From positions 1 through 5,893 of IMG/VR virus record IMGVR_UViG_2778261277_000021: a DNA stretch of 5,893 bases. One strand, 5' to 3'. Below are positions 1 through 3,000 of the stretch, piece by piece; position 1 is the stretch's first letter, and each line of letters begins with the position of its first letter. The DNA comes from a virus. Lineage: Duplodnaviria; Heunggongvirae; Uroviricota; Caudoviricetes. The position numbers are program-made.

Positions 1-3000
1 CGGTGTCCGCGCAAGGGGGCCACGGCTGCCAGCGGGTATATGCGCTGGGAAGGTGTCAGCGATGGCCTGAAGGTGACTGCCGGGAGCGTGATTCAGCGCG
101 ATGACCTGGTTCAGTACACGGCAACTGCCGATGCAACCAGCTCCGGTGGTGTCCTGCGTGTGCCGATCACTTGCTCAACTACTGGCGCGGCCGGTAACGC
201 TGACGACGGTACGGCATTAATCCTGGTCACGCCGGTGAATGGTCTGCCGTCTTCCGGTGTGGCTGATACCCTGACAGGCGGATTTGATACTGAAGAGCTG
301 GAAACGTGGCGCGCCCGCGTCATTGAGCGGTATTACTGGACGCCTCAGGGCGGGGCTGACGGGGACTATGTCGTCTGGGCTAAAGAAGTGCCCGGCATTA
401 CCCGCGCATGGACATACCGTCACTGGATGGGAACGGGAACTGTCGGTGTGATGATTGCCAGCAGTGACCTGATTAATCCCATTCCGGAAGAATCAACGGA
501 AACGGCGGCAAGACAACATATCGAGCCACTGGCCCCGGTGGCAGGCTCTGATTTGTATGTGTTCAGGCCGGTGGCGCACAAAGTGGATTTTCATATCCGC
601 GTGACGCCGGACACACCGGAAATACGGGCTGCCATCACCGCGGAGTTGCGTTCGTTCCTGCTGCGTGATGGTTATCCGCAGGGAGAACTGAAGGTATCGC
701 GTATCAGTGAGGCGATTTCCGGTGCGAACGGGGAATACAGCCATCAGTTGCTTGCCCCGGCAGACAATATCTCCATTGCAAAAAATGAACTGGCGGTACT
801 GGGGGCGATTTCATGGACGTGACAAACGATGATTACATCCGTCTGTTGTCGGCACTGTTGCCCCCCGGTCCGGCGTGGTCAGCCAGCGATCCGGCGATTG
901 CCGGTGCGGCACCGTCATTAACCCGCGTTCATCAGCGTGCGGATGCCCTGATACGGGAGCTGGATCCGCGCACCACCACTGAACTGATAAACCGCTGGGA
1001 GCGTCTGTGCGGTCTGCCGGATGAATGTATTCCCGCAGGGACACAGACCCTTCGCCAGCGTCAGCAACGGCTGGATGCGAAGGTTAACCTGGCGGGCGGC
1101 ATCAACGAGGATTTTTATCTTGCACAGCTTGCTGCCCTGGGCAGACCAGATGCCACCATCACGCGATACGACAAAAGCACGTTCACCTGCTCATCGGCCT
1201 GTACTGACGCTGTGAACGCGCCTGAATGGCGGTATTACTGGCAGATCAACATGCCAGCCGCCACCAACACCACCTGGATGACATGTGGCGATCCCTGTGA
1301 TTCCGCACTGCGTATCTGGGGGGACACCGTTGTCGAGTGCGTGCTTAACAAACTCTGCCCGTCGCATACCTACGTAATTTTTAAATATCCGGAGTAATCC
1401 ATGCATCGTATAGACACGAAAACCGCGCAGAAGGATAAGTTCGGCGCGGGTAAAAACGGTTTTACCCGTGGTAACCCCCAGACTGGCACGCCTGCCACCG
1501 ATCTGGATGATGACTACTTTGACATGTTGCAGGAGGAGCTTTGCAGCGTTGTAGAGGCATCCGGTGCCAGTCTCGAGAAGGCGCGGCACGACCAGCTGCT
1601 TACCGCGCTTCGTGCGCTGCTGTTAAGCCGCAAGAATCCGTTTGGTGATATCAAATCGGATGGCACTGTGCAAACGGCTCTCGAAAACCTTGGTTTAGGA
1701 GATATCAGTGCTACAGGTGTTGCGACAGGTAGTATGGGCGAAACCGGATATGCCATATTTCCGATGATGATTGGCGGTACGCGTAAGACGCTTATTATGC
1801 AATGGGGAGTAATGACATCTCTGAGATCAGGCGGCACTGTGGATATTAATCTGCCGATTGCTTTTCCTACTATGGTTATGCAGGCATATGCAACACATGA
1901 TAATGTGATACAAACCGCACGACCGACAGTATATGCAATTGCCCCAACAAGCCGAACCACTATCACTGCGACGGCGATGAGCTTACGTGCTGACTCAGTG
2001 GGTGCTGCAGTGACGCGCAGTAGTGACAGTGATTTGTGTTACGGTCGTTATCTTGCAATAGGGTACTGAAATGAATCTGAAATATTTTTCTCCATCAGAA
2101 AATGCGTTTTATGCCGGGGAGCTTAAGGAAAGCTATATTGCTGCAGACTCATGGCCTTCTGATGCCTTGGAGGTTGACGAAAGTCTTTATCTTGAGTTTA
2201 TCGATGAGCCGCCAGCAGGTAAGTATCGTGGAGTGGATGATGCAGGTATGCCCTGCTGGCTTGAAATTCCTCCACCCACCGCAGAGGAAATGGCATCGAA
2301 TGCAGAGAATATGAGACAGCAGCTCATTGATGAGGCAAATGTTTATATAAACAAACGTCAGTGGCCGGGAAAAGCAGCGATAGGCCGTTTAAAGGCGGAT
2401 GAACTGGAACGATATAACCTTTGGCTGGATTACCTGGATGCGCTGGAAGTAGTAGACACCTCCAGCGCGCCAAACATTAACTGGCCTGATCCTCCGGATG
2501 CGTAGGCCATACGGGTTTTGCTGTATCGACACGCATTAGCAAGACCCGATATTTCTTCCATTCGGCCAGAGCGACGGTTTCCTCATCCGTCGCGATACCA
2601 ACATCAACTGCATCCTGCCGCCAGGCTATCTCAGCGTCAGCAATAGCGCGTAAACTGCTGGGATAACAGCCCAATGGAACGCTTCTTCAGGAGTCTGAAG
2701 AACGAATGGATGCCGGTGGTGGGTTACGTAAGCTTCAGCGAGGCAGCTCACGCCATAACGGACTATATCGTTGGATATTACAGCGCACTAAGACCGCACG
2801 AATATAACGGTGGGTTACCCCCAAACGAATCGGAAAATCGATACTGGAAAAACTCTAACTCGGTGGCCAGTTTTTGTTGACCACTTCACACGTCGTATGC
2901 AAGAACGTGCTGCGGCTGGCTGGCGAACTTTCGATAGTGCGAGTATTGAATGATTTCCAGCCGTTACCGATTTTACGTGTTAATTAGTGAATAAACCACT

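Follow-up and report, generated by a model that had tools for sequence, protein, structure and literature searches.

The tail fibre locus of a dusA prophage

The DNA analysed here is a stretch of 5,893 nucleotides from the IMG/VR virus record IMGVR_UViG_2778261277_000021 (hereafter, the window), and its subject is a 26-bp sequence inside the tail fibre gene stf of an Escherichia coli prophage. The window is identical to positions 1–5893 of the draft contig NLFZ01000063.1 of E. coli assembly GCA_002225765.1 and covers the right-hand end of a prophage inserted at dusA. The stf gene (1401–2069, + strand) is an open reading frame (ORF) of 222 amino acids with an intact reading frame and a Gp53-like_C domain at residues 131–222. 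It is divided into a constant part (Sc, 1401–1677) and a variable part (Sv, 1704–2069), and the 26-bp sequence at 1678–1703 lies between them. This sequence is very probably a left crossover site that survives from a serine-invertase switch of the e14/Pin type; the switch was dismantled by deletion in this dusA prophage of the myovirus type. The assignment as an orphan, pixL-like left site was based on its match to pixL, its matrix score, and its position in intact relatives.

Downstream of stf lies tfa (2071–2505, + strand), the assembly (chaperone) gene for the expressed fibre tip, which was recognised by the Pfam profile Caudo_TAP (E 3e-31). It is followed by a convergent remnant of tfa', the corresponding gene of a lost alternative fibre (2477–2656, − strand), which was recognised by Caudo_TAP and tblastn. 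In the annotation of PigCaeca_2, the closest of the complete genomes that share the window architecture, this remnant is a partial pseudogene. Next to it is a 3' remnant of the insertion sequence (IS) IS911 (2646–2888, + strand) with its right end, ...GACCACTTCA, intact. This remnant was identified by megablast, by alignment to an IS911 copy and to the flank in enterotoxigenic E. coli (ETEC) H10407, and by rve_3/rve_2 domains. The DNA at 2889–2983 is a spacer that, according to blastn against H10407, lies between the invertase gene and dinI in intact relatives.

Crossover site in the tail fibre gene

The 26-mer CTCTCGAAAACCTTGGTTTAGGAGAT is located at 1678–1703 on the + strand and occurs only once in the window, even when three mismatches are allowed. 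It consists of an outer half, CTCTCGAAAACC, the central dinucleotide TT at 1690–1691, and an inner half, GGTTTAGGAGAT, the two 12-base halves being symmetric around the TT at 9 of 12 positions. Its reverse complement was compared with the published pixL of e14, TTCTCCCAAACC AA GGTTTTCGAGAG (PMC3241671, Table 3), and 24 of 26 bases were the same, with full identity throughout the outer half and the central dinucleotide and in the GGTTT of the inner half. The agreement was 20/26 with both cixL and cixR, 19/26 with hixL, and 18/26 with gixL.

To score the site, a weight matrix was prepared from 11 published hix, gix, cix, mix, and bix sites (table in PMC3241671), and the pix sites were left out to avoid circularity. 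The window site scored 29.3 bits, within the 20.5–35.4 bits of the training sites. The best unrelated position in the window (3030) scored 8.0 bits, a value equal to the mean of the maxima in shuffled windows, and none of 200 shuffled windows reached 20 bits. A preliminary description of this DNA had reported the symmetry and core of Gin, Cin, Pin, and Hin sites at 1678–1703, and both were borne out by these values; alignment to gix, cix, pix, and hix sites placed the sequence far above random background. Judged by these comparisons, 1678–1703 is a genuine left crossover site of the Din family (Gin/Cin/Hin), of the e14/Pin type and pixL-like.

The background position at 3030–3055, inside the dinI-like gene (GTCTCCTGAACAAAAGTTTTTGCAGA, 8–9 bits), has a central AA and the orientation of a right site. 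It was considered as a quasi-partner and rejected because 47% of shuffled windows score likewise.

The site is in frame within stf, where it encodes A93–D101 (ALENLGLGD), and the GC content is 0.552 in 1401–1677 vs 0.481 in 1704–2069. Window 35–1702 was 96.2% identical to jayE-ymfQ-stfP of e14 in K-12, and this homology stopped at 1702. Likewise, window 1–1702 matched the intact dusA prophages of ETEC H10407 and SM107 at 97%, and the match resumed only at 2889. At the protein level, 99 of the first 100 fibre residues were identical to those of e14 StfP, and the sequences diverged beyond. The variable part (1674–2634) was 95–96% identical to cassettes in quite different prophages (NCTC9040, ET881, and LT883142); the homology to this other cassette type began at 1674, and the two homology tracts overlapped in the site alone. 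The in-frame position at the joint between a GC-rich and an AT-richer part of the fibre gene, as first described, was located to codons 93–101. On this homology evidence, the site is the boundary at which the constant part of the fibre gene gives way to the variable part, and this unannotated 26-mer explains the mosaicism of the fibre gene at exactly that point.

Intact relatives of the switch

In H10407, SM107, and CX07, the genes at dusA were arranged as stf-tfa-tfa'-stf'-recombinase-dinI-int-dusA, with the alternative fibre end stf' on the minus strand and tfa' convergent. The sole long inverted repeat in this region had one arm at the position of the window's site and the other immediately upstream of the recombinase gene; in H10407, the arms were at 4685–4704 and 6557–6576 of locus L003. 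When intact loci were scanned with the matrix (L002, L003, L007, L008, and L020), exactly two sites in the range of real sites were detected in each: a left site on the minus strand and an inverted right site on the plus strand. The recombinase of H10407 has 187 amino acids with Resolvase and HTH_7 domains. It shared 56% identity with PinE of K-12 and, when compared with solved structures, matched the DNA-invertase chain 3uj3 best (E 1e-56).

The metagenome contig L020 had the window's backbone, and its Stf and Tfa were 100% identical to those of the window. It also held the other half in full, with a complete tfa' of 146 amino acids and an alternative fibre end that opens with ...GLGEAAKRDVG; a pinE-like gene was represented by its start. 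The left site of L020 was the same as that of the window, and its right site, TTCTCCTAAACCAACGTTTATGAAAA, scored 29.3 bits. Going by this shared sequence, the window's site belongs to a switch that L020 preserves in its intact form. The likeness to the invertible Mu G, P1 C, and e14 P segments that had been drawn from the window was upheld by the full stf-tfa-tfa'-stf'-invertase order of the intact dusA relatives.

Evidence of inversion was obtained from these relatives. When the H10407 segment was inverted in silico at the central dinucleotides, an in-frame fibre of 215 amino acids was formed, and the 702-bp recombinant junction was found at full length and 98–99% identity in 16 complete genomes. 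CX07, at the dusA locus, was colinear with the flipped H10407 sequence over 1,728 bp, and avian pathogenic E. coli (APEC) O78 matched the flipped query (2,301 bp) from position 1 to 2177 in two segments, which together cover 83% of it. Both orientations of the segment occur among the genomes of the intact relatives. In e14, both orientations coexist in cultures (PMC4272514); PinE converts one into the other, as does PinQ of the Qin prophage acting in trans (PMC12529663).

In the case of the NCTC9040-type cassette (L004, L005, and L006, at approximately 5525–5550), the right site was degenerate (TTCTCCCAATTGAACCTTTTTTATAA, 16.3 bits), with the AAACC core changed to AATTG. This switch may be impaired despite its intact invertase gene. 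A repeat search detected no inverted repeat in the cassette, though the degenerate right site is detected by the matrix.

Loss of the second half of the switch

The window holds one complete set of the switch, consisting of 1704–2069 with tfa at 2071–2505; the second set is reduced to approximately codons 83–141 of tfa', with no alternative variable part (Sv'). The tfa' remnant corresponds to the last 56–59 codons, i.e., approximately one third of the gene, and the N-terminal ~85 codons are gone. Accordingly, it covered only positions 74–131 of the 131 positions of the Caudo_TAP profile (E 1.5e-16), and residues 83–141 of the intact Tfa' of L004 aligned by tblastn to window 2656–2480 at 86%. 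No invertase remnant was detected in the window, as tblastn with three Pin proteins gave best E values of 1.3–2.9 and no ORF had a Resolvase or HTH_7 domain. Similarly, tblastn with two alternative fibre ends returned nothing credible in the window. No second crossover site exceeded 8 bits in the window, and none exceeded 13.5 bits in the 44-kb prophage region of PigCaeca_2.

The position of the lost half is occupied by IS911. Megablast matches annotated as IS911 spanned 2646 to approximately 2888–2897 at 98–99.6% identity, and the IS911 part comprised the last ~243 bp of the element, up to the intact right terminus at 2888. The junction between tfa' and IS911 is within 2646–2656. Immediately to the right of the terminus, window 2889–5893 was 99.2% identical to H10407 (L003) 7255–10259 by blastn, and this homology resumed 48 bp past the invertase stop codon, the recombinase coding sequence of L003 ending at 7206. 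The preliminary description had placed tfa and a convergent tfa' remnant downstream of the site, had reported the N-terminus of tfa', the alternative fibre end, the partner site, and the invertase as absent, and had seen an IS remnant in their place; each of these points agreed with the present results.

Two complete chromosomes (CP038857 and CP181594) and several draft assemblies had the same architecture in identical or near-identical form. In the set of 5,426 complete genomes, the IS911-linked deletion was found in PigCaeca_2 only, at a coverage of at least 80% of window 2600–2960. Two short ORFs were tried as markers of the junction. A product of the 65-amino-acid ORF spanning the junction was not on record, and the IS911-derived ORF of 68 amino acids was rejected as non-specific, since it is called at decayed IS911 copies across E. 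coli genomes.

Proposed history and present state of the switch

In the intact relatives, the Pin/Gin-like invertase encoded just right of the segment pairs the site with its inverted partner, approximately 1.6–1.9 kb away, and cuts both sites at the central dinucleotide so that the segment flips. The constant N-terminus of the fibre then reads in frame into either of two alternative C-termini, each with its own assembly chaperone. In the window's lineage, IS911 would have inserted 48 bp downstream of the invertase gene, after which a single deletion would have extended from inside IS911 leftwards into tfa'. This deletion would have taken out approximately 1 kb of IS911 together with the invertase gene, and also the partner site, the end of the alternative fibre, and tfa' up to codon ~85. 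According to the work cited in PMC3798978 (Kahmann 1985; Johnson & Simon 1985), a Fis-bound enhancer, which Gin- and Hin-type invertases require in cis, is located inside the 5' part of the Gin and Hin invertase genes. The DNA where such an enhancer would be expected is deleted in the window, and by analogy the Fis-dependent enhancer would have gone with the invertase gene.

The feature in the window is no active switch, having neither partner site nor invertase, but the remnant of one. As no partner site is present, local inversion is impossible, and all 15 distinct copies of the frozen module that were recovered were colinear with the window, with the same orientation and junctions; the segment was found in one orientation only among them. 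With the invertase and the partner site lost and stf and its own tfa intact, the phage can still make a fibre, but therefore of one type only. From what is known of such cassettes in Mu, P1, and similar elements, we infer that the phage would be locked into one receptor specificity.

Several points weigh against this reading. That the module never inverts would follow from the absence of parts, as read from sequence, and the source genome is a draft, so that the absence of the invertase and the partner holds for the window. In favour of the reading, a chimeric DNA query of three kinds of pin gene returned a single megablast match in PigCaeca_2, namely the cassette itself; this search covered the chromosome, plasmids were not reported, and genes below ~80% DNA identity would have been missed. 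As Pin paralogues can act in trans on e14 (PMC12529663), an enzyme of this kind, where present, may still bind or cut the orphan site. The exact left junction of the deletion is uncertain by ~10 bp, no intact tfa' of the same allele having been recovered. Furthermore, no intermediate with a full IS911 at the insertion point was found among the 5,426 complete genomes, and an IS insertion followed by one deletion would be the simplest reading of the two junctions.

Alternative explanations

The 26-mer might be merely a conserved coding motif, the ALENLGLG hinge of this fibre family, with its resemblance to invertase sites as a by-product, and might never have been a recombination site in this lineage. 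It is indeed in frame inside a conserved hinge, the hinge is common to fibres with quite different N-termini, and some of the joints between modules are found at window 1626, upstream of the site, which is what exchange by homology within a conserved motif would predict. However, L020, with an identical fibre gene, has the inverted partner, the outer half of which lies outside the coding sequence of ...GLGEAAKRDVG and next to the pin gene. Moreover, each intact relative had exactly two high-scoring sites, inverted and flanking the segment, the predicted recombinant junction is present in natural genomes, and the tfa' remnant shows that the second half was once present in the window's lineage. 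This explanation is largely refuted and very improbable. Still less credit is due to the explanation that the tfa'/IS911 junction is an artefact of short-read assembly and that the real locus is intact. The source of the window is a 12.8-kb draft contig, invertible segments and IS copies are classic break points of assemblies, and two Logan contigs stop inside the IS remnant; the junction was nevertheless found at 100% identity over 1491–2991 in the complete PigCaeca_2 chromosome, and a second complete chromosome (CP181594) has it too, as do over ten independent assemblies, which leaves an artefact scarcely conceivable.

Another explanation is that the switch is not frozen, and that an invertase from another prophage or a plasmid pairs the orphan site in trans with a distant pix-like site. 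The outcome would be cassette exchange or large chromosomal inversions, not a local flip. The action of PinQ of Qin on the e14 P segment in trans (PMC12529663) provides a precedent, and at least one pin-type gene was present in 2,846 of the 5,426 complete E. coli genomes. ETEC H10407 has two different prophages with the same cassette (99.9% identity), and the homology between them stops at the crossover sites. Set against this, the PigCaeca_2 chromosome was without a megablast-detectable pin homologue, its 44-kb prophage region had no second site above the 13.5 bits given above, and all 15 distinct copies of the frozen module share orientation and junctions. In addition, the cis enhancer is normally inside the invertase gene that was deleted here (Gin and Hin, according to references in PMC3798978). 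An invertase acting in trans is thus improbable, though less so than a mere coding motif, and dismantling of a local switch by deletion is preferred.

Comparison with known inversion systems

The dismantled switch was compared with the P region of e14 in K-12 (pixL, pixR, and pinE). The two have the gene order jayE-ymfQ-stf-tfa-tfa' in common, together with the 24/26 match of the site to pixL, the DNA identity of 96.2% over 35–1702, the 99/100 identity to StfP, and the end of the homology inside the site. Unlike e14, the window lacks pinE, pixR, and an stfE-type alternative end, and its variable fibre end differs. Furthermore, e14 is a 15-kb remnant at icd, whereas the window's element is at dusA with a dusA-type integrase, in a seemingly complete prophage of ~37.5 kb.

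Similar to the G segment of Mu (Gin) and the C segment of P1 (Cin), a 26-bp site is located inside the fibre gene at the constant/variable joint, and the logic of two convergent sets of fibre end and chaperone, with a serine invertase gene next to the segment, is shared. The invertase of the intact relatives matches the DNA-invertase chain 3uj3, and the baseplate genes are Mu-like. However, the site identity to these systems was 18–20 of 26, the fibre and chaperone sequences are unrelated in detail, and the switch is dismantled in the window. Salmonella Hin/hix belongs to the same recombinase family and uses a 26-bp site with a 2-bp core (PMC3798978), hixL matching at 19/26; Hin flips a promoter, whereas the switch of the window would exchange a coding-sequence end, and there is no flagellin context in the window. 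The pinQ (Qin) and pinR (Rac) loci of K-12 likewise arose in E. coli prophages by decay of a switch of this kind. They keep an invertase without a working segment, whereas the window keeps the site and one expressed cassette without an invertase, and inversions were reported in e14 only, not in Qin or Rac (PMC12529663).

The locus is a decayed, ordinary case of the well-known Pin/Gin/Cin fibre switches, closest to e14, and will not surprise a specialist. Knowledge of the mechanism of Pin-type inversion is unchanged by these results. When genes are annotated or host ranges predicted, this lineage of dusA prophages should be treated as having a fixed fibre, not a phase-variable one.

Other decay routes at dusA

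In strain TF5 (L012 2178–3469), also at the dusA locus, the switch was lost independently and without an IS, by a deletion from inside tfa' to inside the invertase gene. This deletion took the catalytic part of the invertase and left the left site (28.3 bits) and an invertase stump with the HTH domain. In FDAARGOS_1059 (L011 1901–3001) and in the O111:H2 strain 12A, the dusA locus carried a different, non-invertible fibre of 366 amino acids with an intact ORF. It was joined at the very centre of the site, with the outer half read into an unrelated glycine-rich C-terminus, and the last ~45 bases of the invertase gene were left downstream. RefSeq annotates only the first 297 bases of the FDAARGOS_1059 fibre, as a truncated stfP pseudogene.

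Judging from these sequences, the decay of the switch is a repeated event at the dusA locus. The locus and its relatives constitute a natural series of intact, flipped, deleted via IS, deleted without IS, and replaced by a non-invertible fibre, and this series could be used to study the frequency and the routes of loss of host-range switches in phages that have become resident.

Mobility of the fibre-tip cassettes

The window and PigCaeca_2 (L001) differed at 66 positions, 41 of them in 1–1490 and 25 in 2992–5672, with none in 1491–2991. If the differences were spread evenly, ~17 would be expected in 1491–2991 (P ~5e-8). The difference-free tract suggests an exchange of the frozen module or its flanks by recombination between lineages.

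Window 1626–2976, with the same tfa'/IS911 junction, was found at 99.3–99.6% identity in other prophages (L024 and L026–L031). Those prophages have a different baseplate (Sheath_initiator/Phage_Wedge1) and a fibre of 238 amino acids with an unrelated N-terminus. Most of them are at another integration site, with a different integrase near genes of the Form_Nir_trans, MlaA, and Toluene_X families, and one copy of the frozen module is near rsmF. Hybrids with the window's baseplate and the other integrase were also found, and they aligned to the whole of window 1–2976 at ~98%. In the case of H10407, the same cassette is at L003 4685–6571 and L043 2501–4387 (99.9%), and the recombinase gene of the second prophage is frameshifted.

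From these distributions, fibre-tip cassettes, the frozen one included, appear to move between prophages, with the conserved hinge and the site as the probable joint. In some cases, the left boundary is 52 bp upstream of the site, which favours homologous over invertase-mediated exchange. It is conceivable, though unlikely, that the orphan site is not inert, and that Pin-type sites are portable joints by which fibre tips move between prophages. Movement would then be brought about by invertases supplied in trans or by homologous exchange in the hinge, and the frozen cassette (site, fibre end, tfa, and the stumps of tfa' and IS911) was present at 99.5% identity in at least three other prophage contexts. 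Unrelated prophages share intact cassettes as well, and there the homology stops at the crossover dinucleotides. If this were true, a fixed tip might be kept for a benefit to the host, e.g., masking of surface receptors as reported for StfE2 of e14.

Prophage context

To the left of the fibre gene, the window begins with the 3' part of a baseplate J/gp47-like gene cut by its left end (1–822, + strand), which was identified from the annotation of PigCaeca_2 and H10407 and from Pfam Baseplate_J on the identical gene. It is followed, directly 5' of stf, by a ymfQ/Mu gp48-like baseplate gene (813–1397, + strand; Pfam Phage_Mu_Gp48, E 2e-26), which is within the 96% match to jayE-ymfQ-stfP of K-12 e14. 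The baseplate genes are those of Mu gp45, gp46, gp47, and gp48 type. To the right of the switch are a dinI-like gene (2984–3232, − strand; Pfam DinI, E 1e-19), which belongs to the prophage context and not to the switch, and a dusA-targeting tyrosine integrase gene at the right end of the prophage (3294–4391, − strand; annotation and Phage_integrase). The host gene at the attachment site, dusA, follows at 4480–5517 (+ strand; annotation in PigCaeca_2), and pspG is a further host gene in the window.

The prophage of PigCaeca_2 extends over ~37.5 kb from the integrase to a dusA fragment and has a full complement of genes for regulation, replication, lysis, head, contractile tail, and baseplate. 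A family of integrases directed at the 5' end of dusA has been described; on integration, they restore this end of the gene (PMC4482086). As expected from this, a 105-bp fragment of the dusA 5' end was found at the far end of the PigCaeca_2 prophage (L010 37607–37711).

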